A stretch of 64,000 nt of DNA from Dehalococcoidia bacterium (GCA_963663235.2 CAXXNO010000011.1:1-64000); one strand, 5' to 3'; positions 17,020 through 48,406 are shown, counted from the stretch's first letter. Program-made: numbers and translations. The notes: a model not told the origin generated them from the letters alone.

Positions 17020-17153
17020 CGACTTGCCCCTGATCTCGATCCAGGGGCGATGGGACTTCCGGGGCTTCCAGAGCTTGTTCGATGAGCTCCTGGGGCGTCA
17101 AGTTCCCGAGCGCGGTGTGGGGACGGTCCTCGTTGTCCTCCCTTCGCCAGCCC
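17020..17153 (-). mobile_element. IS3-family 3' remnant with right end
   Basis: Translates WRREDNEDRPHTALGNLTP; terminal GGGGCAAGTC resembles the IS3 end at 29035-29046. Confidence 0.75.
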
Positions 17154-17340
17154 TGTGGGGCTCAAAACCCCATCCGCATCATGCGACGTGCCACTGGGAC
17201 GCGTGATCCAGGCCGCCGAGGATGGACCGCGCGTCGAGGTGGCGTCAGCCCCTTACGGGAGGGCAATCCGTCGGAGTAGGCAGAGACCGCCCTTGGCGTC
17301 TCGACTCGCCGTTGTAGGGTCCTCCCGCCGGGTTTACCGT
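17154..17340 (-). mobile_element. IS481-like (rve integrase) 3' remnant
   Basis: Begins TGTGGGGCTCAAAACC like the TIR at 41524; translates ILGGLDHASQWHVA* versus ILGGLHHEYFWDAA*. Confidence 0.65.
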
Positions 17341-17417
17341 TAAGTCCGCACTGGGCCAGGTGGCCGAGGATTCGATGATCTCCATGTTCCCGCCGCGAGC
17401 GGGGAGGGAGTTGCAAC

Positions 17418-19226
17418 ATGAAACGAATTTCCATCGCACTCGTCGCGTTGGCGGCCATCGTGACCGGCTCTGCCCTGGGCCAGCCCGGCGACGCCCAAGC
17501 GCAGGCCGACCCTGCCCCAAGGCCCGATGTGTTTGTCGACGTTCTGATCGCCTTCGACCGCACGCCGGGCCCCGCAGAACAAGCGTTCGTCCGGGGGGCA
17601 GGCGGCCAGATCAAGCACACGTTCCACCTGGTGCCGGCGATCGCCGCCTCCGTTCCGCAGGGAGCGATCCAGGGCCTGCTCAATAACCCGCGCGTGGCGG
17701 CCGTCGATCCGGACGGCCGGGTCCACGCCATCGATCACGACATCACCACCAGCGACGCGGAACTCGAGGCCGTATGGGGCGTCGAGCACATCGGGCCTGG
17801 CGCCGTCCACGCCGGCGGCAACAACGGTCTTGGCGTCAGGGTCGCCATCATCGACTCGGGCATCGGTTACACGCACGCGGACCTGGACGCGAACTACGCC
17901 GGCGGCTATGACTTCGTGAACGACGATGCCGATCCCATGGACGACAACGGCCACGGCACCCACGTCGCCGGCACCGTGGCGGCCGAGGATGACGACGCTG
18001 GTGTGGTCGGCGTCGCGCCGGACGCGTCGCTCTACGGCCTCAAGGTGCTCAACGCCAGCGGCAGCGGCTCCTGGAGCGACATCATCGCCGCGCTCCAGTG
18101 GGCCGTCGACAACGGCGTCCAAGTCACGAACAACAGCTACGGCAGCGGCACGAATCCCGGCGGAACCGTGCAAGCGGCTTTCGACAACTCGGCCGCCGCT
18201 GGGATCCTGCACGTCGCGGCAGCCGGCAACACCGGCAATCCCAAGGGCAAGGGCAACAGCGTGGGCTGGCCGGCGCGTTACGACTCTGTCATTGCCGTGG
18301 CCGCTACGGACAGCAGCGACAATCGAGCAAGGTTCTCCAGCACCGGCGACCAGGTCGAGCTGGCGGCGCCGGGCGTCGCCGTCAACTCCGCGAAACTCGG
18401 CGGCGGCTACATCGAGTTCAACGGCACCTCAATGGCCTCGCCCCACGTGGCCGGGACGGCGGCGCTGCTCATCGCTGCCGGCATCACGGATTCCAACGGC
18501 GACGGCAACATCAATGACGAAATCCGCATCCGTCTGCAAGAGACCGCCGACGATCTGGGCGACCCCGGGCGCGACTCCCTGTACGGCTTCGGCCTCGTGC
18601 ACGCGGACGAGGCGGCCGACATTGGACCGCCCAACGACGCCCCTGCCGTCTCCATCACCAGCCCGGCCGACGGCTCCACCTTCGACTCCGGCGCCTCGAT
18701 CCTCTTTGAGGGGACGGTCAGCGACACCGAGGACGGCGACCTGACCGCAAGTCTGGCATGGACCTCGGACCTTATCGGTCCGATCGGCGCCGGCGGCAGC
18801 TTCTCCACGACGCTCAGCGATGGAACGCACACCATCACCGCCTCGGTGACGGACTCCGGTGGCAAGACCGGCAGCGCCTCGATCTCCCTCACCGTGGGGA
18901 ATCCCCCAGCGGAGGCGACGAGCGTTAGCGTCGACTCCATCACCTACGCCACCGATGGCGGCAAGAACCAGGACAAGCACCTCGGCCTCACCGTGACTCT
19001 CGTCGATGACCTCGGCAACCTCGTCGCCAATGCCTCCGTCTCCGTTGACCTCTCCCGTGACGGTTCGTCCGTCGCCAGCGGGACCGGCACGACCGACGCC
19101 GACGGCACCGTGACCTTCACTCTCAATAGCGCTGCCTCCGGCTGCTACCACACTGATGTGACGGACGTGCAGGCGGGCGGCCTCCTGTTTGACGGTTCCG
19201 AGCCTGCAAACGAGTTTTGCAAATAG
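17418..19226 (+). CDS. Secreted S8 subtilisin-like serine protease with C-terminal Ig-like domains
   Basis: Signal peptide; IIDSGI, HGTHVAG, GTSMASPHVAG catalytic triad motifs. Confidence 0.96.
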   Translation: MKRISIALVALAAIVTGSALGQPGDAQAQADPAPRPDVFVDVLIAFDRTPGPAEQAFVRGAGGQIKHTFHLVPAIAASVPQGAIQGLLNNPRVAAVDPDGRVHAIDHDITTSDAELEAVWGVEHIGPGAVHAGGNNGLGVRVAIIDSGIGYTHADLDANYAGGYDFVNDDADPMDDNGHGTHVAGTVAAEDDDAGVVGVAPDASLYGLKVLNASGSGSWSDIIAALQWAVDNGVQVTNNSYGSGTNPGGTVQAAFDNSAAAGILHVAAAGNTGNPKGKGNSVGWPARYDSVIAVAATDSSDNRARFSSTGDQVELAAPGVAVNSAKLGGGYIEFNGTSMASPHVAGTAALLIAAGITDSNGDGNINDEIRIRLQETADDLGDPGRDSLYGFGLVHADEAADIGPPNDAPAVSITSPADGSTFDSGASILFEGTVSDTEDGDLTASLAWTSDLIGPIGAGGSFSTTLSDGTHTITASVTDSGGKTGSASISLTVGNPPAEATSVSVDSITYATDGGKNQDKHLGLTVTLVDDLGNLVANASVSVDLSRDGSSVASGTGTTDADGTVTFTLNSAASGCYHTDVTDVQAGGLLFDGSEPANEFCK

Positions 19227-19257
19227 CGGGTAGTCCGCAGTCTTCGCAGGCATTAAT

Positions 19258-19292
19258 GCAACTCCCCGGCGTGCGCCGGGGAGTTGCTCTTT
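19258..19292 (+). terminator. Rho-independent terminator after the subtilisin gene
   Basis: 13-bp perfect stem GCAACTCCCCGGC / GCCGGGGAGTTGC followed by TCTTT. Confidence 0.75.
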
Positions 19293-25793: not shown

Positions 25794-27173
25794 ATGGTCA
25801 CAGTCCCCGATTCACCGCACGCCAAGGATATCGAGTCCCTGCTGCACCCGATGTCCAACATCATCCAGTTGGAGGAGGAAGGACCCCTCATCCTGGAAGA
25901 AGGCCAGGGCGTCTTCGTCCGGGACATCGAGGGCAACGAGTACCTCGAAGGGATGGCGGGGCTGTGGTCGACGTCGCTCGGGTTCAACAACGAGCGGCTG
26001 GTCCAGGCCGCGTTGGCCCAGATGCAAAAGCTTCCGACGTATCACACGTTCTTGGGGCGCTCGAACCTGCCCGCCATCGAACTCGCCGACCGTCTCTTGA
26101 AGCTCGTGCCGGTACCCATGTCGAAGGTGTGGTTCGCCAACTCGGGCTCCGAGGCGAACGACCACATGATGAAGTTCGTCTGGTATTACAACAACGCCCG
26201 GGGCAAGCCCGAGAAGAAGAAGATCATTGCCCGCGACGGCGGCTATCACGGCATCGCGATCTCATCGGGCAGTCTGACCGGGCTACCGCTGATGCACCGG
26301 GGGTTTGACCTCCCAATCGCGAACGTCCTCCACACCGGGAGCCCTCACCACTATCGTCATGCCGAGCCCGGCGAATCGGAAGAGGATTTCGCGACCCGGC
26401 GCGCGGCGGAGCTGGAGCAGCTCATTCTTGACGAGGGGCCGGACACGGTGGCGGCGTTCGTCGCCGAGCCGATCCTCGGCGCGGGCGGCGCGGTGCTCCC
26501 GCCGCGCACCTACTTCGAGAAGATTCAGGCGGTAATCGAGAAGTACGACGTGCTGATGGTGGCCGACGAGGTCATCACCGGCTTTCACCGCACCGGCAAT
26601 ACCTTCGCCAGCGAGACCTACGGCATCAAGCCCGACATCATGGTGGTGGCCAAGGCGCTCTCCTCCGCCTACATGCCGATCTCCGCCGTCATCATCAACG
26701 ACAAGGTGTACGGCCCGATCCGCGAATTCAGCAATGAGAACACGATGTTCGCCACCGGCTTCACCTACTCAGGCCATCCCGTGGCGGCAGCCGTGGCGGT
26801 GGAAACGCTCAAGATCTACGACGACCTCGACATCGGAAGTCACGTGCGCAAGGTCTCGGTCCTGGCGCAGTCACGCTTGGAGGCGCTCGCCGACCACCCG
26901 CTGGTTGGTGAGGCGAAGGGCGTTGGCCTGATCGGCGGCCTGGAGCTGGTCAAGGACAAGTCCACCAAGGAGAACTTCGGTCCCGAGGTGGCGACGTTCT
27001 GCGGTGACGCCTGCCTGCGCCACGGCATTATCCTGAGGCCTTGCGCGGGCAGGCGCATGGCGTTCTGCCCGCCGCTCATCATCGAGGAGCCCGAGATCGA
27101 AATGCTGTTCGATGGTTTTGAGAAGGCCCTCGACGATACCCTTGCGCACGTGCGCGCCAGCGGCTTGATGTAG
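25794..27173 (+). CDS. Class III aminotransferase (omega-amino acid transaminase-like)
   Basis: GMAGLW, SGSEAND, YHG, ADEVITGFHRTG, AKALSS, FTYSGHP. Confidence 0.95.
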   Translation: MVTVPDSPHAKDIESLLHPMSNIIQLEEEGPLILEEGQGVFVRDIEGNEYLEGMAGLWSTSLGFNNERLVQAALAQMQKLPTYHTFLGRSNLPAIELADRLLKLVPVPMSKVWFANSGSEANDHMMKFVWYYNNARGKPEKKKIIARDGGYHGIAISSGSLTGLPLMHRGFDLPIANVLHTGSPHHYRHAEPGESEEDFATRRAAELEQLILDEGPDTVAAFVAEPILGAGGAVLPPRTYFEKIQAVIEKYDVLMVADEVITGFHRTGNTFASETYGIKPDIMVVAKALSSAYMPISAVIINDKVYGPIREFSNENTMFATGFTYSGHPVAAAVAVETLKIYDDLDIGSHVRKVSVLAQSRLEALADHPLVGEAKGVGLIGGLELVKDKSTKENFGPEVATFCGDACLRHGIILRPCAGRRMAFCPPLIIEEPEIEMLFDGFEKALDDTLAHVRASGLM

Positions 27174-27413
27174 CCGCCTGGAGTGGCCGCATATTCCATC
27201 CGCCGGCCCGCGGGTCCCGAATCGCGGTCGTGAGAGGCTCGAACCGCACGACCTGGCCGAGTTCGGCACGCGGATGGAGGTTTGAGCCACCACAGGTGCG
27301 CGGGGCGGGCTCGCCCGGCTCGACGAAGTCGTTGCGGCCAAGCAGGGGCCGCTCTCGCGCCTTGTGCCGACCTGCCCCGCGCCGCTCCGGCGACCGCGCG
27401 GGGAATGACTGTG

Positions 27414-27804
27414 ATGCGCCTGCGCGCCTATCTGATCACAATGGTCATCGCCGGCGCGGTGGCCGCCCCGCTCTTCGGCATCGTGCGTAGCGACAGCTTC
27501 CCTATCTCCACCTATCCCATGTTCGCCAGCGCGCGCACATCAGAAGTCGCCATCTCCCACGCGCTCGCCGTGCGCACCGACGGCGAGCGGCGTCCGTTGC
27601 CACCATCGGCGGTGGCGAACGCGGAAGTCATTCAGGCCTTTGAGACGGTGCGGCAGGCTCTCCGCCAAGGGCCCGAGGCGACGCAGGCCCTCTGCAACCG
27701 CATCGCGGCGGGCCTCGCTCACTCGGGCGGACAGAGGGGGACGAAGCGGGTGGAGATCGTGACGGACCGCTTCGACGCGGTCTCGTACTTCAAAGGCGAC
27801 ACCC
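27414..27804 (+). pseudogene. Membrane-anchored hypothetical protein, C-terminus cut by IS3 insertion
   Basis: TM segment then DSFPISTYPMFA; frame runs into the IS3 left end at 27805. Confidence 0.6.
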
Positions 27805-29046
27805 TGACCTGCCCCCCCAGAACCGGTCCAGATCCTGTGCGAGGATTCGGGCCGGTGCGAAGGGAGTCGGCATGGCACGCAAGCGGTACGCGGCCGAGGA
27901 GATCATCGGCCACCTGCGGGAGGCGGAGGGGGTGCTCGCGCCGGGGGAATCGGTCGCGCCGGTCGCGCGCCGCCTCGGCGTGGCCGAGCCAACGTATTAC
28001 CGCGGGCGGCGGGAGGACGGGGGGCTGCGGGTCGACCCGGCCAAGCGGCTGAAAGAACGGGAGCGCGAGAACAGTCGGCTGAAGCGGGTGGTGGCCGATC
28101 AGGCGCGGGCCAACGCGATGGTGCGGGACGTCGCAGCGGGAAACTTCTGAGCCCGGCCAAGCGGCGCCGGGCGACATCCTACCGCACGGACCCGTACGCG
28201 GTGTCGGAGCGGCGGGCCTGCCCGGTCACCGGCCAGGCGCGGGCGACCCAGCGCGACGTGCCCCGGCCGTCCCCGGATGCGCCGGCGCTGATCGCGCGCA
28301 GCGTCGCGCTGGCCCCCCGCTGCGGCCGCTACGGCTCCCGTCGCATCCCGGCCCGGCTGCGCCAGGCGGGCTGGCGGGTGAACCCCAAGCGGGTCGAGCG
28401 GCGCTGGCGTCAGGAAGGCTGGCGGGTCCCCGGGAAGCACCCCCAACGGGGCCGCCGCTGGCTCGCGGCCGGCTCGCTGGTGCGGCGGCGGGCCGAGCGG
28501 CCGTCCCACGTCTGGTCCGACGCCTTCGTCTTCGACCGCACCGCCGATGGGCGCCCGGTGCGGATCCTCGCCCTCGTGGATGAGGACCACCCGCGAGGGC
28601 CTGCGTCTCGACGTCGCCCGCCGACGGCGCCGCGACGTCGGCCTGGCGCGGTTGGCCCAGCTGTTCGTCGAGCGCGGGCCGCCGACGTTTCTGCGGTCCG
28701 CCAACGGCCCGGCGTGCACCGCCACCGCGGTGCGGGACTGGCTGCACCGGGTCGGGGGCACGACCCGCTTCATCGAACCGGGCAGGCCTTGGGCGAACGG
28801 CTCTGGGGAATCGTTCAACGGCAAGCTGCGCGACGCGTGCCTCAATCGCGAGCGCTTCGACACCCTGCTGGAAGCCCAGATCCTCATCGCGGGCTGGCGG
28901 CGGGAGGACAACCCGATCCGCCCCCACCGTGCCCTCGGCTCCCGCCCCCCCGCCCCGGAAACGCAGCAACCCCGGGAACGTCCCATGACGCGCGTCCCGG
29001 CGATCGGACTCACTTAACGACTGGTACAACGATCGGGGGCAGGTCA
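27805..29046 (+). mobile_element. IS3-family element, hypermutated and inactive
   Basis: TIRs TGACCTGCCCCC / GGGGGCAGGTCA; orfA 27872..28150; GGGAAAC slippery site 28138-28144; orfB with +1 frameshift near 28587 and mutated DDE motifs. Confidence 0.93.
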
Positions 29047-29343
29047 CTGGAGGAGCAGCGCGGCGACGTCGCGGAAGCGGAGCGTGTACCGGAGACGCCA
29101 GAGTACGGCGAGCAGGACGATATCCGTCGGGTACTGGAGATCGTTGACCGGGGCGCCGGTCCGCTCGTTGAAGGTCCTCCGGCAGGCGCGGCACGCGGAG
29201 GTGCGGTAGCCGAGGGCGGTGCGCCGCCGCCGTCGGCTGGTCTCTCCGGAGCCCCAGTGGGGACAGTCCACAAGCAGTCCTCCCCAGGTCGCTGGTGAGC
29301 GCGACGCTAGCAGAGGACCCGTGGTCTGAGATCTGACGGAACC
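29047..29343 (-). mobile_element. IS6-family 5' fragment truncated by IS3
   Basis: TIR GGTTCCGTCAGATCT at the right end; RTALGY...FNERTG...NDLQYPTDIVLLAVLWRLRY. Confidence 0.88.
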
Positions 29344-29375
29344 CGCCTGCCGGTTCTCAGGATGGGAACGGGGTC

Positions 29376-30269
29376 GTGAGCAGCCAAACGCAAGCATACC
29401 TGTACGCGGGAGGTGCGGTTCTCCTGTGGGCGACCGCCGCGTCGGCGTTCAAGGTGTCGCTGCGCTACGTCGAAGCGCCGCACATGCTGCTCTACGCGAC
29501 GATCGTATCGACGCTGGTGCTGCTCGCCGTCGCGGCCTGGCAGCGCAAGCTGGGGCAGGCGCTGATCGGTTCGCCCAAGCAGTATCTGCGGTCGGCGGCG
29601 CTCGGCCTCCTCAACCCGTTCCTCTACTACCTCGTGCTGTTCGAGGCTTACGACCGTCTGCCCGCCCAAGAGGCGCAGCCGCTCAACTATGCCTGGCCCA
29701 TGGTGATCGTGATCCTCTCGGTGCCGCTGCTCAAGCAGCCCCTGGGCAGGATCTCCCTGGCCGCGATCGCGGTGAGCTTCTGCGGCGTGCTCGTGATCGC
29801 GACGCGCGGCGACCTGCTGGCCTTTCGCGTGAGCGATCCGGTCGGCACGGCCCTGGCGGTCGGCAGCGCCTTCATTTGGGCCACGTTCTGGCTGACCAAT
29901 GTCCGGGACGACCGCGATGCCGTCGTCAAGCTGCTGCTGAACTTCGCCTTCGGATTGGTGTTCGTTCTCGCCGCGGCCTTCGCCCTGGCCGGCCCGCCGC
30001 CTCTGGACCTGCGCGGCATCGGAGGATCGGCGTACGTCGGCGTCTTCGAGATGGGCCTGACCTTCGTCCTCTGGATGCGCGCCCTCTCGCTCTCGCGGAC
30101 GACCGCGCAGGTCAGCAACCTCGTCTACCTATCGCCGTTCCTCTCGCTCATCCTCATCAACATCATCGTGGGGGAGGCGATCCGGCCGTCCTCGGTGATC
30201 GGTCTGCTGCTCATCATCGGTGGAATCGCCATCCGCCGCTTCGATCGGACCGCGCCGCGACCGGTCTGA
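29376..30269 (+). CDS. DMT/EamA family transporter
   Basis: About 10 hydrophobic segments; LNYAWP, LVYLSPFLS. Confidence 0.9.
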   Translation: MSSQTQAYLYAGGAVLLWATAASAFKVSLRYVEAPHMLLYATIVSTLVLLAVAAWQRKLGQALIGSPKQYLRSAALGLLNPFLYYLVLFEAYDRLPAQEAQPLNYAWPMVIVILSVPLLKQPLGRISLAAIAVSFCGVLVIATRGDLLAFRVSDPVGTALAVGSAFIWATFWLTNVRDDRDAVVKLLLNFAFGLVFVLAAAFALAGPPPLDLRGIGGSAYVGVFEMGLTFVLWMRALSLSRTTAQVSNLVYLSPFLSLILINIIVGEAIRPSSVIGLLLIIGGIAIRRFDRTAPRPV

Positions 30270-30930: not shown

Positions 30931-30931
30931 C

Positions 30932-31980
30932 TATAGGACCACAAAACACGGATCGTGTCTGAGATTGCGCCGGAGCGCCCGCCCGCCGAGCCTCCTCCCA
31001 GATGGGAGGGACGCATGCGCACCGTGCTTGCCCTATTCGTTGGACTGCTGGCTCGCGTCGGACGCTCGCGGCAGGATCTTCTCCTCGAGAACTTCGCCCT
31101 GCGCCATCACCTGATGCTGTGCGCGCGCCGCCCGCGCGTGACCGAGGTCGATCGTCTGCTCTGGGCGCACCTCCGCCGTCGCTGGTCGGGCTGGCGCACG
31201 TCCCTGGTGATCCTCCATCCGGACACGGTCGGGCGGTGGCATCGCACCGGCTGGGGCCGGTTCTGGACCTGGACCTGATTCTCCGCCGTGCGCGGGAGAA
31301 TCCGCGCTGGGGCGCGGTGCGCATCCGGGCCGCGCTGCGGACGCTCGGTTCCGACGTGCGGGCGGAGACGGTCCGCCGCTACCGGCGGCAGGCCATGCGG
31401 CGGCCGCCTGCGCAGCGCTGGCGGACCTTCCTCCCCAACCAGCGCGGCGTCCTCTGGGCGGCGGACTTCTGCCCCGTCCCGACGCTCACGTTCGGGACGG
31501 TGTCCGTCTTCTTCCTCATCGCGCATGCCCGGCGCCGCATCGAGTCCGTCAACCTCACGGCCTATCCCACGGCGGCCTGGACCTGGCAGCCGCTGATCGA
31601 GGCCACGGCCTGGACCCATCGCCCGCGCCTACGGGCGCGACGGCGTGGCCCGGGCGCAGCGGCTTGGGATTGGGCCGATCTGGACACCGGTGCGGGCTCC
31701 GCAAGCGAATGCCGTGGCCGAGCGCTGGGTCGGGACGCTCCGACGCGAGGGCTTGAATGACATCACTCCGCTCAACGCGCGGCACCTGCAGCGGATCGTC
31801 CAAGAGTTCGTCGCCTCTGACAACGAGACTCGTCCCCATCGGACCCTCGCCCTCCATCCGCCAGCCGGGCCGCGCGCGCCACAGCGGCACGGGCGCGTCG
31901 TCGCGCCCCCGATTCTGGGAGGCCTCCATCATCGCTACGAACGGGCCGCTGCCTGACGATCCGTATTTTGTGGCCCGACA
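30932..31980 (+). mobile_element. IS481/IS3-like (rve integrase core) element, heavily mutated with internal deletions
   Basis: TIRs TATAGGACCACAAAACACGGATCGT / ACGATCCGTATTTTGTGGCCCGACA; fragments LLLENFALRH, WAADFC, ANAVAER, ILGGLHH. Confidence 0.9.
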
Positions 31981-33876: not shown

Positions 33877-34998
33877 CCGTGGGGCGGCAAAACCTCATGC
33901 GGCCCACCGATACTCATGATGCAACCCTCCTAGCACCGGCTTGCTGTCGACTCGCTGGCTCGGCATCCGCTGCATCGGCTTGCGTCCCTCCGGAGAGTCG
34001 AGCGCCAATGACCGATGCGGCCGCATCGCGTTGTAGTGCTGGACGTACTCACCAAGCACCCGCCTCAGATGCCGTTCGTTGACGGCGATGACGTGATCGA
34101 GGCACTCGCGCCGGAGCGTCCCGATCACCCGCTCGGCGATGGCGTTGGCGTTCGGCGCGCGCACCGGAGTCAGAATCGTCTCGATCCCGATCCGTCGAGC
34201 GCGTGCGATGAAGTCCCCGCCATAGCTACGGTCGCGGTCTCGGATGAGGAACCCTGGCTGCTCACCCCAGACGGTCGCCTCGATCATCTGCCTCCAGATC
34301 CAGGGCGCGATCGGGTGCTCCGTGACGTTCCAGTGCCGGATGCGGCGCCGGCCGTGGTCGATCACGACGAACACGTAGAGCGTGCGGAAGGTGAGGGTCT
34401 GCACCGTGAACAGGTCAGCAGCCCAGATGCTGGACGGGTGGTTGCGCAGAAACGTGCGCCACGACTGACTCGGCGGTCGCCGGAGCGCCTGCTGACGGTA
34501 GCGGCTCACGGTGCGAGCGCTCACGTCGAAGCCAAGCGCACGCAGCTCACCAACGATGCGGACGGCGCCGCACCATGGATTCTCAGTGGCGATGCGCAGG
34601 ATCAGCCGCTGCCACTCGGCGGGAATGTGGGGACGCCCAGGTCCGCGACGACTCTTCCAGCGCCAGTAGGCGCGCCAAGCAGAACGATGCCACCGCACAA
34701 CCGTGTCCGGCTCGACCATCACGAGCGTGCCTCGCCAGCCGGACCAACCGCGTGCCAGTAGTGACCAGAATCGGCGGTCGTGGCGACGGAGCCGCAGTCG
34801 ACGACGGCCCCGGGTGTAGACGGCGAGCTGATGCCGCAGCGCTAAGTTCTCGAGGACGAGATCTCGGCGGGCGCGGACCGAAGCGAAGAGTGCTGCGACA
34901 AGCAGACGGAGGTAGAGCACAGACGAGCCTCTCGTGGCTCGCCGATACTCTGCTATCTCAGGACAGAGCTGCACCTATCAGGTTTTGCCGTCCCACGG
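33877..34998 (-). mobile_element. IS481/IS3-like element, near intact (transposase 33895..34920)
   Basis: TIR CCGTGGG(G/A)CGGCAAAACCT at both ends; WAADLF, IRDRD, AERVIGTLRRECLD, YNAMRPH; flanks GTGCGG / GTACGG. Confidence 0.92.
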
Positions 34999-36544: not shown

Positions 36545-36715
36545 GCGCCGGTGGAGGGTCGCGCCCCCAGCCGCGCAGCGGTCGAGCATCGCCAGCGCTG
36601 CCTCGCGCTCGGCGTAGCCGCTCGCCTGGGTCAACTCGACGTCCAGCACCAGGCCGTGGCGGTTCTCGGTGAGCAGATGGCCCAGGTAGCAGAGCTTCGC
36701 CGTCTGTCTCCGGGC
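36545..36715 (-). mobile_element. IS5-family transposase internal fragment
   Basis: Translates AKLCYLGHLLTENRHGLVLDVELTQASGYAEREAALAML. Confidence 0.7.
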
Positions 36716-36768
36716 CGTGGGGCGGAGCCTCCCGAGCGGAGGGAGCCGCGCCCGCGATCTCCTCCCCC

Positions 36769-38004
36769 TTGCAGGTGGAGCAGCTGCCGATCGCGGATCT
36801 CCATCCCGATCCGGGCAACCCCCGCCGCATCGGGGAGGACGAACTGGCGGCCCTGACCCGCTCGATCGCCACGTTCGGGGTCGTCGACCCGGTGCTCGCC
36901 CGCCGCGCCGACCGGCGCGTGATCGCCGGCCACCAGCGGCTCGTCGCCGCCCGCCGCGCTGGCCTCACGACGGTGCCGGTGATCCTGCTCGACCTCCCGG
37001 CGGAGGACGCCCGGCTGCTCAACGTCGCCCTGAACCGGATCGGCGGGGAGTGGGACGCCGACCTGCTGGCCCGCCTGCTGATCGACCTGCGCACCACGGC
37101 GGACCGCGACCTGACGCTGAGCGGCTTCGCCGAGGCCGATCTCCAGGACCTGCTCACTCGCTTCGACCAGCGGGAGAAACGGGCCCGCCCGGAGCGGTTC
37201 GACCTGGACGAGGCGCTGGCGGCGGTCGACCGCGAGGCCAGCGGGATCGCCCCCGGCGCCGGCTGGCAGCTGGGCGCGCACCGCCTCTTCCGGGGCGACG
37301 CCACGGACGCGGCGTTCGTGGCCCGGTGCCTGGGCGACGGGCCCGCGGCCCTGGTCTTCACGGACCCGCCCTACAACGTGGCCTACGGCGCCCACGGCGG
37401 CCGGGCGGCCGACGCGCCCGCCCGGCGCCTCGTCAACGACGCCATGCCCGAGGAGGAGTGGGAGCGCTTCTGCCGGGCCTGGGCGGTGAGCCTGGCGGCC
37501 AACGCGGCCGGCGCCCTGTACGTCTGCATGAGCAGCAAGGAGTGGCCGGTCGTCTGCCGCGCCCTGGCCGAGGCCGGGGCGCACTGGTCGGACACGATCA
37601 TCTGGGCCAAGGACCGCTTCACGCTGGGCCGGGCCGACTATCAGCGCCAGTACGAGCCGATCTGGTACGGCTGGCCCCAGGGGACCACCCGTCAGTGGCA
37701 GGGCGGGCGCGACCAGAGCGACGTCTGGCACATCCCGCGTCCCGCCGCCTCGCCGCTGCACCCCACCCAGAAGCCGCTGGCCCTGGTCGAGCGGGCGATC
37801 GCGAACTCCAGCACCCCCGGCGCCACGGTCCTGGACCCCTTCTGCGGCGCGGGCACGACGCTGATCGCCTGCGAGCGCACCGGGCGCCGGGCCGTCGGGG
37901 TCGAGATCGACCCGCGCTACGTGGCGGCCACGATCGCGCGCTGGGAGGCGTTCACGGGCGCGGCCGCCGTGCCCCTGGAACCGAGGGAGGCGACCGATGG
38001 CTAG
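36769..38004 (+). CDS. ParB-like N-terminal domain fused to N4/N6 DNA methyltransferase (phage type)
   Basis: NPR...IAGHQRL (ParB); TDPPYN, HPTQKP, DPFCGAGTT. Confidence 0.92.
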   Translation: MQVEQLPIADLHPDPGNPRRIGEDELAALTRSIATFGVVDPVLARRADRRVIAGHQRLVAARRAGLTTVPVILLDLPAEDARLLNVALNRIGGEWDADLLARLLIDLRTTADRDLTLSGFAEADLQDLLTRFDQREKRARPERFDLDEALAAVDREASGIAPGAGWQLGAHRLFRGDATDAAFVARCLGDGPAALVFTDPPYNVAYGAHGGRAADAPARRLVNDAMPEEEWERFCRAWAVSLAANAAGALYVCMSSKEWPVVCRALAEAGAHWSDTIIWAKDRFTLGRADYQRQYEPIWYGWPQGTTRQWQGGRDQSDVWHIPRPAASPLHPTQKPLALVERAIANSSTPGATVLDPFCGAGTTLIACERTGRRAVGVEIDPRYVAATIARWEAFTGAAAVPLEPREATDG

Positions 38005-39171: not shown

Positions 39172-40158
39172 CTAAGGGTGGTAAGCCGGGGCGCGGGGGC
39201 CGGAGGGCGCGGGGCCGGCAGCCAGCAGACGGGCGGCGGGGCTGAAGGCGGCGTGCGCATCCGCCGCCTTGGCCGCGTCGTAGGTGGCGGAGTAGCGCCG
39301 CACCATGGCCGAGGTCGAGTGGCCCAAGAGGTACTGCACGTCCAGCTCCCGGGCGTGGTTCTCGATCGCCCAGGTGGCGAAGGTGTGGCGGAAGCGATGC
39401 GGGTTGGCGTGGACGCCGGCGCGCGCGCCCAGCCGGGTGAAGAGAGTGCCCAGGAGGTACGGGTTCATCGGCCCGCGGGGCTTCCTGGAGCGTTCGATCG
39501 TGAGGAACAGCGCCCCCGGCGCCTCGCTGCGGAAGCGCGCGATATAGTCGCGCAGCGCCTCGTCCGGTCCGTCGCCGAAGGGGACCACGCGCTGCTTGCG
39601 GCCCTTGCCGTGGCGGATGTGGATGCGCCGGGTCTCCCAGGACACGTCGGCCAGGGTGAGCCGGTGCAGCTCCGTGTAGCGCAGGCCGGTATCGAGGAAG
39701 AGCAGGATGATGGCCCGGTTGCGGCAGCCGAACTCCGTGGTGGGGTCGCAGACGTCCAGCAGCGCCTGGATCTCGTCCTCGGTGAGCGGCTGGATCACCT
39801 TCTGCTCCACTTTGACGTTGGGGATGCCCGTGAACGGGTTCCGCGCCGTATAGCCCATGCGAGTGCACCAGGAGAAGAAGGCCCGGGTCTCGCGGAAGCG
39901 GCGGTGCCGGGTGCCCAGGGAGACGCCGCCGTCGGCGATGACCTTGAGGAAGGCGTAGATGTGGGCCGGGCGGAAGGCCGCGACCCGATCGGGTAGGCCT
40001 TCGGCGGCGCAGATGGCGCGGAAGCGGCGCAGGGTCTCGGCGTAGGCCTGGACGGTGCGCCGGGTCTTGCCCTCCACCTCGCAGGCCGCCAGGTAGGCCG
40101 CGATCGCCTCATCCAGGCCGGTCCCCTCACCCGGGTCCGCTGCGAATTCCGCCGCCAT
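39172..40158 (-). CDS. Tyrosine recombinase / integrase
   Basis: DTGLRYTEL, GKGRKQR, HRFRHTFA, LLGHS, RRY catalytic residues. Confidence 0.95.
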   Translation of the reverse strand: MAAEFAADPGEGTGLDEAIAAYLAACEVEGKTRRTVQAYAETLRRFRAICAAEGLPDRVAAFRPAHIYAFLKVIADGGVSLGTRHRRFRETRAFFSWCTRMGYTARNPFTGIPNVKVEQKVIQPLTEDEIQALLDVCDPTTEFGCRNRAIILLFLDTGLRYTELHRLTLADVSWETRRIHIRHGKGRKQRVVPFGDGPDEALRDYIARFRSEAPGALFLTIERSRKPRGPMNPYLLGTLFTRLGARAGVHANPHRFRHTFATWAIENHARELDVQYLLGHSTSAMVRRYSATYDAAKAADAHAAFSPAARLLAAGPAPSGPRAPAYHP

Positions 40159-40296
40159 GACCCCCTCCTTTCGGCGAGTTCATGGACGCTCTGGCGGAGG
40201 ACGAAGTCAAGCGGATTCCGGAGCCGAACTTTTGCAGTCCGCTGCTCCAGGCCTGGATTCGGGCCGGATTCGCGGTGGTCCCATGAAGAAGCGGGA

Positions 40297-41154: not shown

Positions 41155-41523
41155 GCCTTTTCTCCCGTCGCTGCCCTGTGCTGACAGGTTAGCGCGGGAC
41201 GACCCCATCAATGCAAGTCACGGTTTTTGGTGGGCCATACGCGGGTTGCACGCGTTTATGCCGCCAAGCATGGGTCGGACGGTCAGCCCGAAGCCAGGGC
41301 GACCACGTGAATCACCCACCCGCACATGTCAAACGGGACGCGGATCCATCAATGGCGCTGCACAATGCAACGCGTCCCAAGGCGACGCCGATGACGCGCG
41401 GAGCATCTTCAGGGTGGGGCCGCCGCCCGTGGTGGGCGCATGGTAGCGGGTGGAGGAGGGGGTTTCAGCCGGGCACCATCGCACCGGGCATGTGGGAGCC
41501 GCGCCGGTCTGGTGGAAGAAGCC

Positions 41524-42648
41524 TGTGGTGTTTCAAAACCTCATCACGCTGCATCCCAGAAGTACTCATGGTGTAAGCCGCCCAGAATCGGCCGGCTCGC
41601 TAGGCGCTGCGCCCCACCACGGAGCGTCGGCGTCCGCGGACCGGATGGCGGCTGGTCGCCCAGAGACTGGTGGGGACGCGTGTCGTTGTCGTAGGCGACG
41701 TACTCGCGGAGCACCCGCCGGAGATGCCGTTCCGTGAGCACGATGAGATGGTCCAGACACTCTCGCCGGATCGTGCCAATCACCCGCTCCGCGATCGCGT
41801 TGGCTTTGGGGGCTCGCACGGGGGTCAAGATCGTTTCGATCCCCAGGGCCGCCGCCTTCGGCACGAAGTGACCGCCGTCGTTGCGATCCCGGTCGCGGAT
41901 CAGGAAGCGAGGCGCCGTGTTCCACGGGGTGGCGGCGATGATCTGCCGCCAGACCCAGGGCGCCGTGGGGTGCGCGGTCACGTTCCCATGCAGGATCCGG
42001 CGGCGGTCGTGACTGATCACGAAGAAGACGTAGAACGTCCGCAAGGTAAGCGTCTGCACGGTGAAAAAGTCGGCCGCCCAGATTTCGGGGGCATGCAGGC
42101 GCAGAAAGGTCCGCCAGGTGGGCGACGGCGCCGGCCTGATTCGGCGATAACGATAGACCGTTGTGGGACTCACGGGGTGCCCCAGCACAGCTAACTCGGC
42201 TGCGATGCGGCGCACGCCCCACGTGGGATTCTCCGCTGCCAGCCGGTCAATCAGGCGGCGCGTCTCCAGATCGATCCGCACCCGGCCGGGCTGACCGCCC
42301 CGGCTCTTCCAGCGCCAGTATCGGCGCCAGACAAACCGATGCCACCCGATGACGGTCGCCGGTTGAACGAGCTGCAGATGCGCACGCCAGCCGGCCCAGT
42401 TCCGCGCCGTGACGGACCAGAACCGGCGGTCGCGCGTCTGGAGCCGCGGTCGACGTCCGGACCGTTCCCACACCGCCAGCTGCTGGCGCAGAATCAGGTT
42501 CTCGAGGATCAGATCCCGTCGCCGCCGGCCGAGCATTCCCAGCCCGACCAGAAACAGTCGCCAATAGAGCCACATCGCCGTCCCTCCGCGCGAAGACTCT
42601 CTGGCGGACGCGACTCACACAAGGCCGATAGGGTTTTGAAACACCACA
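41524..42648 (-). mobile_element. IS481/IS3-like element (transposase 41544..42575), lightly mutated
   Basis: Perfect TIR TGTGGTGTTTCAAAACC; WAADFF, IRDRD, AERVIGTIRRECLD. Confidence 0.93.
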
Positions 42649-42875: not shown

Positions 42876-44111
42876 TCACGCAGCACACTGAACCCTCCGC
42901 GCTTCGTCGCGCAGCCTCCGCACACGAGCTGCTAAGCCGTCCACACGATGGAGAATTTCATCGAGTGTGCCGGATAGGTCGAGCGCAGTGACCTCAAGCC
43001 GCTTGCCGGCGTGCCGGACCTGGTAGGAGGTCGTGTCCGCCTCGCCCTCCGCGTATATCAGCAATCCACCTGGCAGACCGAGCGCCGTGGCGTATGCCAG
43101 CAACTGGTAGAGGTCGGTCTCAGGTACAGATGTACTGGTCACACTCTTGTACTTCGCATCACCCACGAACGTGCAGGTCTCCCCGTCCCACCAAGAAAGG
43201 TCAGGCTTGAGTTTCACGGTCCCCTTCTCATCGAGGGGGATCTTGCGACCGCCCGCATCGGAGGACAACGTTCGATCAGAAACGCCGAGCCTCTCCCTGA
43301 GCGCCACTGTCACGAAGTCTTGGAACAGCACGTTCATGTCCAGCAGGAAACCAGACGCTCGCACGTTGCCGCGGCCTGATTCGAACTCGCTGTGTCGCAG
43401 GATCAGCCGCGAGAGTCCCACGACGCCCCGATAGTGCTCGTTGAGCCGGTCGAAACGCATATCGGGGACAGCGTTCGGCGAGAACTCGACCGGCGAGACC
43501 TGCTCAAGCATCCCTGCAACTAATCCCAAGCCTCTGCGTGCCGCGTGCGACCGGAGGGGCATTCGGCCGAGCCGCCCGGCCGCCGCCTTCACCAGCCGGT
43601 TCGCCAGGATGTCGGCGGTGAACTCGTCGTATCGCACCTCGATCGGCAGAGCGCTCCCGAACCGCCGCCGCATCTGCTCGGTGAACCTGATGCGCCCCCG
43701 GACGGTGTGCAGTGCCTCCTCCTCCACCCGGTATCCGTGGAGAAGTCCGCGCCCGAACGCTCTTCGGGCGGCGGCGGCGAGCGCCAGCGCGAGCGTATCC
43801 GGCAATGTTTCCTTCTCCTCGAAATCAAACGGTCGTTCCTCTTGGAGCCTGAACACCCCCATGGCGTAGCAGGCCAGCGCCAGGAGTTGCGGGATTCCGA
43901 TCTTCGGCTCGATGAGCACTGACAGATCGCCGATCTCGACCGCCCCAACGGTTGAACCGGCCGTGAGGCGATATAGGCTCTCGCTCCCTGGGATCGGTTC
44001 GATCGAGGTGAGGGCGAGGGCTTTCCGTTCATGGAACAGGGCGTCGAGCTGGCCGATCGAGAGCGTATGGTTGCTTGGCTCGTACTCTTTCAGGTCAAGC
44101 TTGTGCTTCAT
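42876..44111 (-). CDS. mcrC: McrC family restriction endonuclease subunit
   Basis: RGRIRF, DMNVLFQDFV, LKPD...DAKYK, DLYQLLAYA; directly downstream of McrB. Confidence 0.92.
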   Translation of the reverse strand: MKHKLDLKEYEPSNHTLSIGQLDALFHERKALALTSIEPIPGSESLYRLTAGSTVGAVEIGDLSVLIEPKIGIPQLLALACYAMGVFRLQEERPFDFEEKETLPDTLALALAAAARRAFGRGLLHGYRVEEEALHTVRGRIRFTEQMRRRFGSALPIEVRYDEFTADILANRLVKAAAGRLGRMPLRSHAARRGLGLVAGMLEQVSPVEFSPNAVPDMRFDRLNEHYRGVVGLSRLILRHSEFESGRGNVRASGFLLDMNVLFQDFVTVALRERLGVSDRTLSSDAGGRKIPLDEKGTVKLKPDLSWWDGETCTFVGDAKYKSVTSTSVPETDLYQLLAYATALGLPGGLLIYAEGEADTTSYQVRHAGKRLEVTALDLSGTLDEILHRVDGLAARVRRLRDEARRVQCAA

Positions 44112-46441
44112 TCAGCGTCGCTGCCTTCGGTGGGTGCCTGATCCTCTCCATCGTCCAGTTCAAGGCCGTGAGCAGCCTGCTTCCGCACAATGTCCAGGCG
44201 GAACGCTTCCAGCCGTTCAGCATTGCCGAAGAGGCGCTCCTCAACGTAGGGCAGGACGCTGTGTTCCCAAATGCGGGCGACATCGGCGGCACTGAGACCA
44301 CCTGGCTTCATGAAGTAGCTGGGCCCAATGGCAGCGTGCCGGTCGTCACTCAAGAGACCGTTCGCGTGATCGACGATGTCAGCGACCCACTCCATCTCCG
44401 GGGCCGCGTTCTTCTTCAGCCAGCGGCGGAGCAGGCCTTGGACCGGCGGCTTGTCTGGGTGGAATTCCACGAAGTAGAACCGGCGGCGAAGCGCGAGGTC
44501 CACGAGCGCGATCGATCGATCGGCCGTATTCATCGTCCCGATGATGTAGAGATTGTCGGGGAGCGCGAACCGCGCGTCCGAATACTGCAGGTCAATCTTG
44601 CTGTCACGATACTCCAAAAGGAAGTACAGCTCCCCGAACACCTTGGCGAGGTTGCCGCGGTTGATCTCGTCGATGACGAGAAAGTGCTTCGCCTGCGGCT
44701 CCTGCCCCGCCCGCGCCGCAGCCTGCACTAACGGTCCGTCCCTGAGTTCGAAGCCGGGTTGCCCGTTCCGCGCCGGCCGGAAGCCCTGGACGAAGTCCTC
44801 ATACGCGTAGGACGGGTGGAACTGTACAAGCCTCACCCGCTCCTCCGACCCGGCAAGGTGACGAGCGAGCTTGCGCGCGATGAACGTCTTCCCCGTACCC
44901 GGCGGCCCTTGAAAGATCACCTGGCGCTTCTCTTCGAGCAGTGCCTCGATCTCCTCCAGGAAAGAGGGCTCGACGTTTACCTCTGCCGCAAGCTGCGCCA
45001 GGCCAGCCGTTGCGGGTGGAACGCCTTGGAGCACCCAAGCGAGGGATTGCGCGTCAAGGCGGTGACGCAATTTCACTCCGCGATTTTCTGCCTCTTCGAT
45101 AAACCGGTCCAAGAATGCGAGGGCATGGTCGTAGAGCGTTGCCTCGTCCGCATCCTGAGCCGGGTGCTCATAGCCAGTGCGTTCGTATGCGTCCGTGAAC
45201 ATTTTCTTCTGGAAGGGCGGGTACTCTTGAACGCCCAACCCCATCAACAAGACGGACGCCAAGTTCATGCGCGTCCCTGGGCCGCCAATGACTGACTGGG
45301 GCAACAAGCTGCTGAAGCTACGCACCCGCTCTGACACAGGCGCATCGCTCTCGACCCAAATTGCTTCCAGCGCCTTTTGGGCAGCATCGGGCGAAGCATC
45401 AACCCAATCTCGGAACCTGGCCAATTGCACACGATGTACGAGATTGTTATCGCTGCCGACCAGACTACCGATAACGCGTGTGGACCAATCGTCTGACCGG
45501 GCGAGCACTGCCGCGCGCGCCTCCGCGACTTTTAGGCCAATGGCAATCTTGTAGTAGTTCTCGGCGCTGTCCAGCTGTTCCCTGTCGAGGTAATCCTGGG
45601 CGCTTCTGACAAAGTCATCCCACAGGGTGGGTTTGTAGCTGGCATCCCACTTCGCCCGGATGTCGGGTCGGTAGAAACGGAACTCCTCGGCACCGTAGCT
45701 GGCTTCGAGGACAGAGCGGACTTGTTGCAACTTCCGGTCAAGATCGTCCGGGGGATTCTCGACACGATCCCCAAAAGCCTCGGCGATCCGCCTCTTGTGC
45801 TCGAGGCTGACGATCGGCTCAAAGGTCTCGGGGTGGACAAGGTGCAGCAAGGCCTGCCGTTGTGTGCTGGGCGTATTCTGTTTTCCCCGAAGCAAGAGGC
45901 TACGGAACTTCATCGCCATCAAGAATTCCTTGAAGGCCCACGGATCGTTAAGCAGGTGCAGCCGGGTAGCTGAGGGTTGCTCCTTCAACCGCTCCGCGAA
46001 CTCGATGAGTGATCCGACTTGAAACGGGCGGTACGCATGGAACCCTATCCCTGGGTTCGCGATCCCGGGCGTGAGACCCGCGACCAGTTCCGGCGGTATG
46101 TCCACTGGCTGCGGGGACCAGCGGAGGATCGTGGCGATCTGTTGCACTTCGTCCGTACTGTCTGAGGTGTGGACGATGAGGAAATACACATACAGCGCCT
46201 CAGCCATGAGCTGGTAGACGTCCGCCGGGCTGTTGGCCAGCTGCCGTTCCAATTTATTGATAAAGCTGTCATTGGAGTCGTTCGGCCGATCCAGAAATCT
46301 CTCATGGATCTCCCCGAGCCACTGGCGCGTCCATATTGGCTTGCCCGGGGTGAATAATGAGTCGTCCGCCCTCAGCGCACGCGCGACCCATTCTTCAGCC
46401 GCTTTGTAGACTTTTGCAGCACCGCTTTTTCTCGTACCCAT
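44108..46441 (-). CDS. mcrB: McrB family AAA+ GTPase with long atypical N-terminal region
   Basis: GPPGTGKT, VQFHPSYAYEDFVQG, IDEINRGN, MNTADRS, ALRRRF; start uncertain. Confidence 0.92.
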   Translation of the reverse strand: MGTRKSGAAKVYKAAEEWVARALRADDSLFTPGKPIWTRQWLGEIHERFLDRPNDSNDSFINKLERQLANSPADVYQLMAEALYVYFLIVHTSDSTDEVQQIATILRWSPQPVDIPPELVAGLTPGIANPGIGFHAYRPFQVGSLIEFAERLKEQPSATRLHLLNDPWAFKEFLMAMKFRSLLLRGKQNTPSTQRQALLHLVHPETFEPIVSLEHKRRIAEAFGDRVENPPDDLDRKLQQVRSVLEASYGAEEFRFYRPDIRAKWDASYKPTLWDDFVRSAQDYLDREQLDSAENYYKIAIGLKVAEARAAVLARSDDWSTRVIGSLVGSDNNLVHRVQLARFRDWVDASPDAAQKALEAIWVESDAPVSERVRSFSSLLPQSVIGGPGTRMNLASVLLMGLGVQEYPPFQKKMFTDAYERTGYEHPAQDADEATLYDHALAFLDRFIEEAENRGVKLRHRLDAQSLAWVLQGVPPATAGLAQLAAEVNVEPSFLEEIEALLEEKRQVIFQGPPGTGKTFIARKLARHLAGSEERVRLVQFHPSYAYEDFVQGFRPARNGQPGFELRDGPLVQAAARAGQEPQAKHFLVIDEINRGNLAKVFGELYFLLEYRDSKIDLQYSDARFALPDNLYIIGTMNTADRSIALVDLALRRRFYFVEFHPDKPPVQGLLRRWLKKNAAPEMEWVADIVDHANGLLSDDRHAAIGPSYFMKPGGLSAADVARIWEHSVLPYVEERLFGNAERLEAFRLDIVRKQAAHGLELDDGEDQAPTEGSDAE

Positions 46442-46827
46442 CTTCTCTCCGCCGCGTCTTGATCGCCGTCCTGAATCAGGGAAGTCTATATGGTCGTCGA
46501 CAGGGCTTTTGCCTTGTTGCGGGGCCATTAGTCCCAGTTCACGGGATGCTCGCAATCCTCCCCAGTGCTCCCACTCCGCTTCGTCCGGGAAACCAGCCGG
46601 TCTGTTCGACCCATCAAACGACCGCTGGTCGGACGGCGGGCCAGCGACACCAATGGCGAACTAGTGTGCCGTGATGGTCTGCCGCTGCGGCGCGCGTCCC
46701 GCGTCGCGCAGGTCTACCACTGCCCGAACTTCTCTTCTCGCCACGTGTCGCCGTTCACGAATAACACCTTCGCTAATTCCTGTCATTCCTGTCGCAACTC
46801 GGAGAAACGGAGAGTTTTCTGGTCGAC

Positions 46828-47107
46828 GGTTCCGTCAGATCTCAGGGCTCGTCGGGGAGCCTCGCCCATGACGCGACGAGGAGACGCCGATGCCCTGTCC
46901 CCGCTGGAGCTCGACCGCGACGACCAGGCGGCAACGCCGCACCGCACTCGGCTACCCCGAGGTTCAACTGCCGGGCATGCGGCCGGCGCTTCCACGAGCG
47001 GACCGGCCCGCCGTTCAACGATCTCCAGGACCCGACGGATATCGTCCGGCTCGCCGTGTTGGGGCGTCTCCGGTACACGCTCCGCTTCCGCGCCGTCGTC
47101 GCGCTCT
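46828..47107 (+). mobile_element. IS6-family 5' fragment (degenerate)
   Basis: TIR GGTTCCGTCAGATCTCAGGGCTCG; near copy of 47108-47390 with many changes and indels. Confidence 0.85.
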
Positions 47108-48061
47108 GGTTCTATCAGATCTCAGGGCTCGTCGGCGTAGCGTCGCCTCGTTCATGACGCAACGAGGAGACGCCGATGCACTGTCCGCACTGCCGCTCGA
47201 CTGCGACGACCAAGCGCAGGCATCGCACGACGCTAGGCTACCAGCGATTCAACTGTCGCGCGTGTGGACGGCGCTTCAACGAGCGGACCGGCACGCCCTT
47301 CAACGATCTCCAGTACCCGACGGACCTCGTGCTGCTCGCCGTGCTGTGGCGCCTGCGGTACAAGCTCAGCTTCCGGGACGTCGCCGAACTGCTCCTCGAG
47401 CGAGGCTACACGGTGACGCATGAGACGATCCGCGATTGGGAGTTCCGCTTCGCGCCACTCCTGGCGGACCGGCTTCGCGCCAAGCGGCGCGGTCGCGCGG
47501 GCGTCTCCTGGTACATCGATGAGACCTACGTGAAGGTCGCCGGGCGATGGTGCTACCTCTATCGCGCGATCGACCGGGAGGGCGCGCTGCTCGATTCGAT
47601 GCTGAGCGCGCACCGCGACAAGCACGCCGCGCGACGCTTCCTGCGGGGTCTCATACAGATCGCCGAACGGAAGCCCTTACGCATCACGACCGACGCGCAT
47701 CCCGCGTATCGCAAGGCGATCCGGTGGATCGTCGGGCGGAAGGTGCGACATCGCTGCAATCAATACCTCAACAACTGGATTGAGCAGGATCACCGCGCCA
47801 TCAAGCAGCGCTACTATCCGATGCGGGGCTTCGGGCGGTTCGCTTCCGCTGCCCAGTTCTGCGCGGCCTTCGATGCGCTGCGCCAGTACTTTCGCGTTCC
47901 GCCCCGGCCCGGACTACCGATCCCGTTGGCGACGCGGCGCCCGCTGTTCGTCGCCCGCTGGCGGTCCCTGATCCAGGAGATGCAGGTCGCCTAGGACACC
48001 ATCAACGCTCGCCGGATCACCACGCATCGTTGGCCCCGCTGCCCTCAGATCTGACAGAACC
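47108..48061 (+). mobile_element. IS6-family element, full length (transposase 47176..47994)
   Basis: TIRs GGTTCTATCAGATCT / AGATCTGACAGAACC; zinc-ribbon N-terminus; IDETYVKV, TTD, IEQDHR. Confidence 0.95.
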
Positions 48062-48406
48062 CGGTGAGGGTGTTCAGGTATCGATTGCATCGGTGCCGCA
48101 CCGTTCTCCCCAGGATCCCGCGGATCGCTCGGCGGTACGGCGGATGCGGGTCCGTCGTGACACGCTCGGGCTTGCGCTCGGCCACGTCCACCGCTGCCCA
48201 GTTCTGCGCGGCCTTCGATGCGCTGCGCCAGTACTTTCGCGTTCCGCCCCGGCCCGGACTACCGATCCCGTTGGCGACGCGGCGCCCGCTGTTCGTCGCC
48301 CGCTGGCGGTCCCTGATCCAGGAGATGCAGGTCGCCTAGGACACCATCAACGCTCGCCGGATCACCACGCATCGTTGGCCCCGCTGCCCTCAGATCTGAC
48401 AGAACC
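48062..48406. mobile_element. Inverted IS6 internal fragment (48062-48190) plus duplicate of the IS6 3' end (48191-48406)
   Basis: Minus strand DVAERKPERVTTDPHPPYRRAIRGILGRTVRHRCNRYLNT; 48191-48406 repeats 47846-48061. Confidence 0.85.

Follow-up and report, generated by a model that had tools for sequence, protein, structure and literature searches.

In fungal repeat-induced point mutation (RIP), directional point mutations riddle transposon copies and inactivate the genes that they carry, whereas other sequence in the genome goes unharmed; the changes are C:G to T:A at CpA, create stop codons, strike all duplicated copies before meiosis, and lower G+C content, and the process has a dedicated enzyme, a RID-type methyltransferase homologue. 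APOBEC3-type editing is another host-side hypermutation that cripples mobile elements. In prokaryotes, targeted hypermutation of adenines is known from diversity-generating retroelements (DGRs), which change A to any base on one strand of a short variable repeat via reverse transcriptase. Mutagenic break repair by DinB/Pol IV, described in laboratory Escherichia coli, produces local mutagenesis in repair tracts with a modest, mixed spectrum that includes -1 frameshifts, and a mutator deficient in MutT accumulates unidirectional A:T to C:G changes on both strands, with almost nothing else. Here we analyze the insertion sequences (ISs) between positions 17020 and 48406 of a 64,000-nucleotide window (the whole stretch of DNA studied) from a Dehalococcoidia bacterium, above all an IS3-family element at 27805-29046, and demonstrate that a nearly pure, one-directional A:T to C:G hypermutation acted on particular IS lineages and not on the chromosome at large. 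A previous, sequence-only reading of this stretch had proposed such a bias, focused on ISs of three families, and had interpreted it as a RIP-like defence. A full-text search of the accessible literature found no report of IS-restricted A:T to C:G hypermutation in prokaryotes.

The genome studied (hereafter G000) amounts to 2.75 Mb in 14 contigs, with 67-70% G+C and a single, bacterial 16S gene, and the window covers the first 64 kb of its contig C11; pieces of the 17020-48406 stretch are also contained in sponge and marine metagenome runs. The IS3-family element lies on the plus strand, is 1242 bp long with 74.7% G+C, and is one of 17 copies placed in G000 at 96.7-99.6% identity, 12 of them full-length and five cut by contig ends. 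Its open reading frames (ORFs) are arranged as in other IS3 elements, with orfA (27872-28147) overlapping orfB (28141-28584 and 28643-28969) in a different frame, and orfB is interrupted by an extra internal frameshift. The DDE integrase core was recognized (rve_3, 74.1 bits; rve, 18.3 bits, at 28601-28951) with scores below those of its relatives, and the closest plasmid matches are annotated as IS3 family transposase. The second catalytic aspartate has been replaced (SDNG>SANG), indicating a degenerate domain, and with this residue gone and orfB frameshifted the transposase is dead. Terminal inverted repeats of the TG...CA type (TGACCTGCCCCC ... GGGGGCAGGTCA) were nevertheless present in all 14 copies examined, that is, the 12 full-length copies and both members of a more distant in-genome pair at 84% identity. 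No consistent duplication of 3-5 bp flanks the 12 family copies, and GACTC was found on both sides only in the 84% pair.

Contigs of three sequencing runs join position 29046 to position 27803 with two extra letters, at a depth of 4-7, a junction that would correspond to a circle or a tandem dimer; no end-to-end IS3 junction was found within the G000 assembly. The intact ends, the 17 copies and the end-to-end junction together indicate a non-autonomous element that kept moving, probably mobilised in trans by a related intact IS3, for which the candidate is a 74%-related copy with similar ends on contig C14. The one-base orfB frameshift is common to eleven of the full-length copies, to the copies in a genome of another genus (G003) and to the 84% pair. 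The twelfth full-length copy (C10:3697-4937) keeps an undisrupted VD(A)YTRE orfB frame, like the copies in a further genome (G005), and this phylogenetically incongruent distribution implies recombination between IS lineages. To the left of the element, at window positions 27507-27804, the runs hold a second flank haplotype of ~92% identity with an ordinary spectrum (4 of 21 listed differences A<->C or T<->G). It lies on a long contig, 5-10 kb depending on the run, that stops exactly at the IS3 boundary, pointing to a sister strain in which this insertion is missing or its surroundings differ.

The genome-wide alignment of IS copies that the earlier reading had proposed as a check revealed, for the 17 IS3 placements, a strong skew: they depart from the majority sequence of the family 210 times, with 177 of these departures in the A<->C or T<->G class and only 19 transitions. 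Changes were polarised by outgroup and by triplet site counts, with the 84%-identical pair, G003 and two further relatives as references. With the 84% pair as outgroup, the 69 variable columns yielded 67 polarised changes, of which 46 were A>C or T>G and three were the reverse. After the split between G000 and G003 the window copy acquired 47 changes at 1051 sites (22 A>C, 23 T>G, one C>A, one A>T and no transitions), and the G003 branch acquired five (four A>C, no T>G, no transitions, one G>T). Across ~1099 sites, A:T to C:G changes number 37-49 in every one of the 12 full-length copies, where other changes number 1-5; the window copy has 48 against two. Expressed per site on the IS3 lineage, A:T to C:G changes occurred at 45 of 306 A/T sites and G:C to A:T at one of 745 G/C sites. 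The G+C content rises accordingly, being 69-70% for the outgroup pair, 71-71.5% for the full-length G003 copies and 73.6-74.9% for the full-length G000 family.

Within the element, A:T to C:G changes fell at 15 of 102 A/T sites in codon position 1, 28 of 171 in position 2, two of 45 in position 3, and none of 42 in non-coding sequence (p = 0.001); the first 106 bases are free of changes. The changes at positions 1 and 2 are proportional to the A/T sites available there, as would be expected were the protein not under selection. The replacements include SYDF>SDAF, SDNGPEF>SANGPAC, PWENGYVESF>PWANGSGESF, RDECL>RDACL and REYNQ>REDNP. Because neither A>C nor T>G can create a stop codon, only abolish one, the dead gene remains an open frame, and in the window copy frame 0 is free of stops beyond its first codon across all 1242 bases. 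Sequence context had a modest influence, with a preference for A followed by G (29 of 59 mutated against 64 of 190 unmutated sites, p = 0.045) that recurs in the G005 copy (31 of 52 against 62 of 197, p = 3e-4), and mutated sites common to the G000 family and the G005 copy numbered 22, against 10.7 expected (p = 1e-4). The sequence-only reading was therefore accurate on the direction of the bias (46 against three, and 45 of 47 on the window lineage), on the types of replacement, on the rarity of stops and on the lack of a narrow motif.

To our knowledge, the sole well-known source of pure A:T to C:G change on both strands is the pairing of G, as 8-oxo-dGTP, with A. The reading that we favour, to which we assign a probability of about one half, is that G, likely as 8-oxo-dGTP, was misinserted opposite A during DNA synthesis that accompanies either the propagation of the IS or recombination among its copies. 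G, most plausibly in its oxidised form, would go in opposite template A, and a MutY-type adenine glycosylase would then fix the change. The synthesis might be copy-out replication, or recombination or repair synthesis between copies, and would rely on a polymerase of low fidelity, for instance the DinB homologue, with no involvement of ordinary chromosome replication. Mutations built up stepwise along the descent of the family and were shuffled among copies by gene conversion. Such a coupling would explain both the restriction to these sequences and their mosaicism, and would sit with the spectrum, its polarity, the neutral codon-position pattern and the conserved ends described above. The pattern would then represent a known mutational process localised to mobile DNA, with a minority chance that it represents a new kind of genome defence.

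The restriction to ISs was evaluated against host genes and other repeats. Three host blocks (52 kb), one of them the block at 50000-62000 whose synteny is kept in five related genera at 70-77% nucleotide identity, were projected on those five genera, giving 13,673 columns present in all six. On the G000 tip, where the other five agree, only 8 of 306 changes are A:T to C:G, the lowest share of the six genera, and 124 are G:C to A:T. In the looser set with at least four of the five others agreeing, there are 44 A:T to C:G against 64 A:T to G:C at 3203 A/T sites. Third-codon A/T sites of the G000, G003 and G005 hosts show one A:T to C:G against 16 A:T to G:C at 58 sites (one against seven in G000 alone). 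In self-comparisons of the genome, A<->C and T<->G make up 29 of 117 mismatches between non-IS3 repeats at 99% identity or more, 99 of 503 at 96-99%, 362 of 2250 at 90-96% and 481 of 2719 at 85-90%, a share of 16-25%, whereas pairs of the IS3 family gave 87 of 99 and 1729 of 2066 in the first two classes. The 84%-identical IS3 pair, frameshifted and resident in the same genome, is normal as well, with two A>C among its 15 mutual differences and 2 of 71 changes on its lineage. Both the focus on ISs and the sparing of host genes claimed by the sequence-only reading are thus borne out, and a simple genome-wide MutT-type mutator does not fit.

A less simple version of such a mutator, in which one or more genome-wide episodes coincided with relaxed selection, so that only unselected dead ISs kept their A:T to C:G changes while those in GC-rich coding genes, whose A/T sites are almost all non-synonymous, were purged, is an unlikely explanation that keeps some weight. 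The spectrum (45 of 47, one reverse) is the textbook signature of MutT loss, to which A:T to C:G change is attributed in the accessible text of PMC13212565. The MutT model TIGR00586 passed its cut-off in none of five genomes, where Nudix matches reached at most 35 bits, although it passes in just three of 14 control genomes. Only dead copies of three IS families are affected, their functional relatives being unaffected; the early stem of the IS3 family is strand-asymmetric; and a third-position G+C of 79-95% in the ORFs called in the window leaves few neutral A/T sites in genes. The repeat and 84%-pair controls could moreover be escaped if those sequences arrived in the genome after the episode, and the pairwise asymmetry between G000 and its relatives, which tracked general GC differences (transversion ratio 0.95 and transition ratio 0.93 against G003), lacks the power to reveal a 15% burst at neutral sites. 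However, the whole-genome effect expected of a mutator is missing from the host tip, from the third-position sites of the three affected hosts, from the frameshifted pair and from repeats of every age class. The IS3 per-site ratio of A:T to C:G over G:C to A:T, ~110, corresponds to an equilibrium G+C of ~99%, far above the 79-95% observed, and separate episodes would be needed in three genera.

The hypermutation is not strictly specific to IS3, and every clear target is a dead IS copy. The single non-autonomous IS3 lineage nonetheless accounts for almost the whole signal, which is diluted in the other relics. The IS6-family relic at 33040-33990 (minus strand; ORF 33105-33929; DDE_Tnp_IS240, 102.4 bits), 77.5% identical to the active copy, has 28 A:T to C:G among 113 private changes, and in a strict set where three relatives agree 21 of 51, with just two A:T to G:C; three other IS6 lineages pooled gave 22 of 295 (Fisher p = 7e-6 against the relic). 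The IS481-like (rve_3) relic at 31027-31953 (plus strand; identified by tblastn, with frame segments 31027-31272, 31275-31613 and 31624-31950) shows a moderate excess when aligned by codons: A:T to C:G makes up 19 of its 70 private changes and the reverse four, compared to 38 of 438 in four intact relatives (p = 4e-5). A second IS6 relic, at C12:39946-40612, has 14 of 44.

Normal spectra were found in the active-type IS6 element at 47107-48062 (plus strand; ORF 47158-47994; DDE_Tnp_IS240, 141.3 bits; 10 of 104 private changes), which is one of six near-identical copies, all normal, and in two IS481-like controls. These are the 359-aa rve_3 transposase ORF at 33898-34974 (minus strand; 6 of 120) and the element at 41519-42648 (minus strand; ORF 41547-42614; 10 of 114), which has two copies at 99.6% nucleotide identity and one at 87% on contig C8. 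The IS6 fragment adjoining the IS3 copy (29044-29343, minus strand) has no clear excess (4 of 25), and the left-end fragment upstream of the active IS6 (46828-47106, plus strand) has 8 of 28, where numbers are small; a further IS6 fragment lies at 48064-48411. For the IS6 family there are 13 matches in the genome. When IS6 copies were aligned together with their flanks the unpolarised table was noisy and A<->C was not dominant; the IS6 spectra given here come from trimmed sequences and private-change counts. Beside the active IS6, a 221-nt exact direct repeat of the IS6 right end occurs at 47846-48066 and 48191-48411, 345 nt apart. The earlier claim of three affected families therefore stands strongly for the IS3 element and weakly for the IS6 and IS481-like relics, and it is not borne out for the active IS6, the two IS481-like controls and the fragment at 29044-29343. 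Near 17020, the left boundary of the stretch in that reading, tblastn recovered no IS3 relic, and only a 20.7-bit rve_3 match lies at 17093-17152.

A host system devoted to defence, which would disable mobile DNA in the manner of RIP by directing A:T to C:G mutagenesis at it, could account for the restriction to ISs of three families, for the destruction of transposase catalytic residues while host genes were spared, for the recurrence in three genera of one bacterial family, and for the overlap of mutated sites between independent lineages. We nonetheless regard it as rather improbable. A repeat-sensing system, as first proposed, is not shown, and against it stand the six near-identical IS6 copies that were left untouched and a target family that still reached 17 copies with intact ends. 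In G003, moreover, a 75%-related IS3 family is represented by two copies that proved identical when compared, and just one of two tandem IS3 relatives in G005 is affected. Among the models searched there was no co-occurring candidate gene, and no guide, motif or boundary marker was found.

Comparison with other genomes revealed that the same A:T to C:G overlay occurs on this element in three genera of one bacterial family. The G003 copies are 95% identical to the window copy although host genes of the two genera are 70-77% identical, implying recent movement of the element between them. Two full-length G003 copies differ at 13 positions, ten of them A:T to C:G and none transitions, within 38 variable columns in all. 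In G005, two IS3 relatives lie head to tail, 4 bp apart (L003:1501-2732 and L003:2737-3985); the motif-intact, functional-looking copy has 6 A:T to C:G among 57 private changes, and the dead copy has 44 of 98, plus a similar number of ordinary, mostly third-position changes. Gene conversion among the IS3 copies is frequent. Derived states among the G000 copies are nested locally and incongruent over longer distances, and two truncated, immobile G003 relics differ by a three-site patch matching the alleles of other copies. Targeted mutation of this composite G003 duplicate, which has three differences in the 820-bp relic and none in the other 1241 bp, was considered and rejected; the three differences lie within 42 bp and match other copies, pointing to gene conversion instead.

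The transfer between genera leaves some room for the idea that the mutations were made elsewhere, on a plasmid, in a phage or in a mutator donor, and that successive snapshots of a master copy were delivered to chromosomes. The nested site patterns are those expected of copies shed by an evolving master, and the chromosomal neighbours are unaffected. Even so, this seems to us improbable: 17 dispersed chromosomal copies with mosaic haplotypes arise more easily by spread within the genome, and no episome carrying the element was found, exact-match scans with the IS3 left end giving no matches in viral contigs and none in metagenome contigs. Relatives from marine metagenomes, found with the right end of the element, are not hypermutated (0-2 of 38-45 changes).

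Contigs of four public runs from two studies, one run possibly being the assembly's own source, were placed on positions 27000-30000, and the variant bases recurred in them. Of 14 listed variant places inside the IS, 13 match variable sites, ten of these 13 showing C>A or G>T when compared with the window copy, and contig depth is hundreds to thousands in the IS compared to ~7-90 in most left-flank bins (up to ~250 in run X16). A sequencing or assembly artefact in a high-copy repeat is thus highly improbable: the assembly does look metagenome-derived, with five of its 14 contigs ending in this IS, and the runs are available as contigs alone, their platform not known, but the same variable sites show both alleles at depths of tens to thousands in all four runs, the pattern recurs in three separate assemblies, other repeats of the same assembly lack it, and the haplotypes are locus-specific and locally nested.

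Misinsertion of oxidised G during IS-associated synthesis, our preferred explanation, is compatible with the enzymes that these genomes encode. A DinB homologue was detected in all five genomes examined, as was a MutY-like catalytic domain lacking the C-terminal domain (model positions 2-212 of 277); in G003 the MutY-like gene appears split into two overlapping frames (C1:1561626-1562239). DinB-type polymerases readily insert oxidised dGTP opposite A, according to the accessible part of PMC9927291. The complement of MutT, MutY and Y-family genes is the same in all five genomes and does not discriminate among them, the Pol X model matched no control genome and is therefore uninformative, and no responsible gene was found, candidates having been sought only with MutT, MutY, Y-family and Pol X models. 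An error-prone polymerase cassette, in which a 448-aa ImuB-like Y-family protein is paired with a 1106-aa DnaE2-like Pol III alpha, lies at C12:57053-61906 (L095:9254-14107) inside a 9.3-kb, 99.6% segmental duplication that starts right at the IS3 copy C12:52953-54202, with a second copy of the cassette on contig C9 near 142 kb. As a source of the mutations this cassette finds no support in imuC-loss data from Caulobacter, where the loss raised A:T to C:G at one locus (accessible text of PMC7198004).

Two further mechanisms were rejected. GC-biased gene conversion alone would not create the derived C/G states, which are absent from all known relatives, and by our reasoning, rather than by computation, a 17-copy family cannot give the several hundred-fold acceleration needed. 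DinB-type template misalignment at abasic sites does not agree with the 5' neighbours of the mutated A (C 25, G 25) or with the lack of any A>G.

Several observations weigh against the explanation that we prefer. Before G000 and G003 parted, the stem gained A>C changes (7-10) but no T>G; later changes are symmetric (22 against 23), and the early strand asymmetry hints at in-place, replication-oriented mutagenesis. There are few true singletons, although mutation at each transposition should give non-parental copies private changes; gene conversion or recurrent hot sites may mask these. Immobile IS6 and IS481-like relics carry the signal too, which fits a time-dependent process on dead DNA better than one coupled to transposition, and together with the scarce private mutations this argues against a simple 'per transposition' model. 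The confinement of the signal to dead copies is also what selection under a host-wide bias would give, and the host control sites are mostly constrained, with only 23 third-position A/T sites usable for G000. We know of no citable polymerase error spectrum this pure, and both the lesion and the polymerase, like their link with transposition or recombination, are inferred from the pattern.

In the 17-48 kb region, profile matches identified ordinary host genes encoding an S8 peptidase, hydrolases, dehydrogenases, an aminotransferase and an EamA transporter, alongside an integrase and ParB-methylase module, McrBC and a graveyard of insertion sequences. Matches for a neighbouring aminotransferase came from distant MAGs alone, a Chloroflexota MAG at 80% being the nearest. 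The module comprises a fusion of ParB_N with an N6/N4 DNA methylase (36673-38004) and a tyrosine integrase (39172-40179), followed by McrC (42876-44111) and a long McrB-like AAA_5 protein (44108-46555), and the 36-40 kb stretch has 72-75% G+C. The tyrosine integrase is 89.5% identical to a paralogue on contig C8, with an ordinary spectrum (21/33/3/47). At 33-4597 the window holds tandem paralogous genes ~2.4 kb apart, in blocks 73-91% identical (repeat families D1, D2, D5 and D9).

If the restriction to ISs holds, this would be the first case found in our literature search of localised, directional hypermutation of bacterial DNA transposons, and misincorporation of oxidised dGTP, usually regarded as genome-wide, could be confined to mobile DNA. 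The pattern explains how dead transposase genes stay long ORFs, by which gene callers are misled, and it offers a route for mobile DNA to exceed its host in G+C. Its signature is countable and can be screened for across all genomes, making the deliberate mutation of transposons by prokaryotes a testable question.

Set beside the described systems, the IS3 family resembles each in part. It has the one-directional, two-stranded chemistry of a MutT-deficient mutator, which acts genome-wide, whereas here host genes, other repeats and related IS copies are normal. Local mutagenesis in DinB/Pol IV break repair recalls the DinB homologue and the gene conversion found here, but the footprint in this transposon family is a near-pure A:T to C:G change over ~15% of its A/T sites. 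Unlike in DGRs, A and T are equally affected (22 against 23), change to C or G with no A>G and a single A>T, and do so over a whole 1.1-kb element. APOBEC3 acts by cytosine deamination, giving G>A changes that enrich AT, and differs from the IS3 case in both chemistry and hosts. In its logic the case recalls RIP, but the changes here are A:T to C:G with no transitions among 47, cannot make stops, raise G+C from ~71% to ~75%, and occur in a bacterial host in which several multi-copy families were untouched, among them the six IS6 copies and segmental duplications, as were the 75%-related IS3 copies of G003. Bacteria of this family might possess a process by which certain transposable elements are recognised and their A:T pairs turned into C:G; chemically new, it would be the prokaryotic equivalent of RIP, and could be either an enzyme system or an error-prone step that IS recombination always entails. 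We consider its existence doubtful, but were it confirmed, such a process would destroy transposase genes for good without introducing stop codons and would push the G+C of the element above that of its host.

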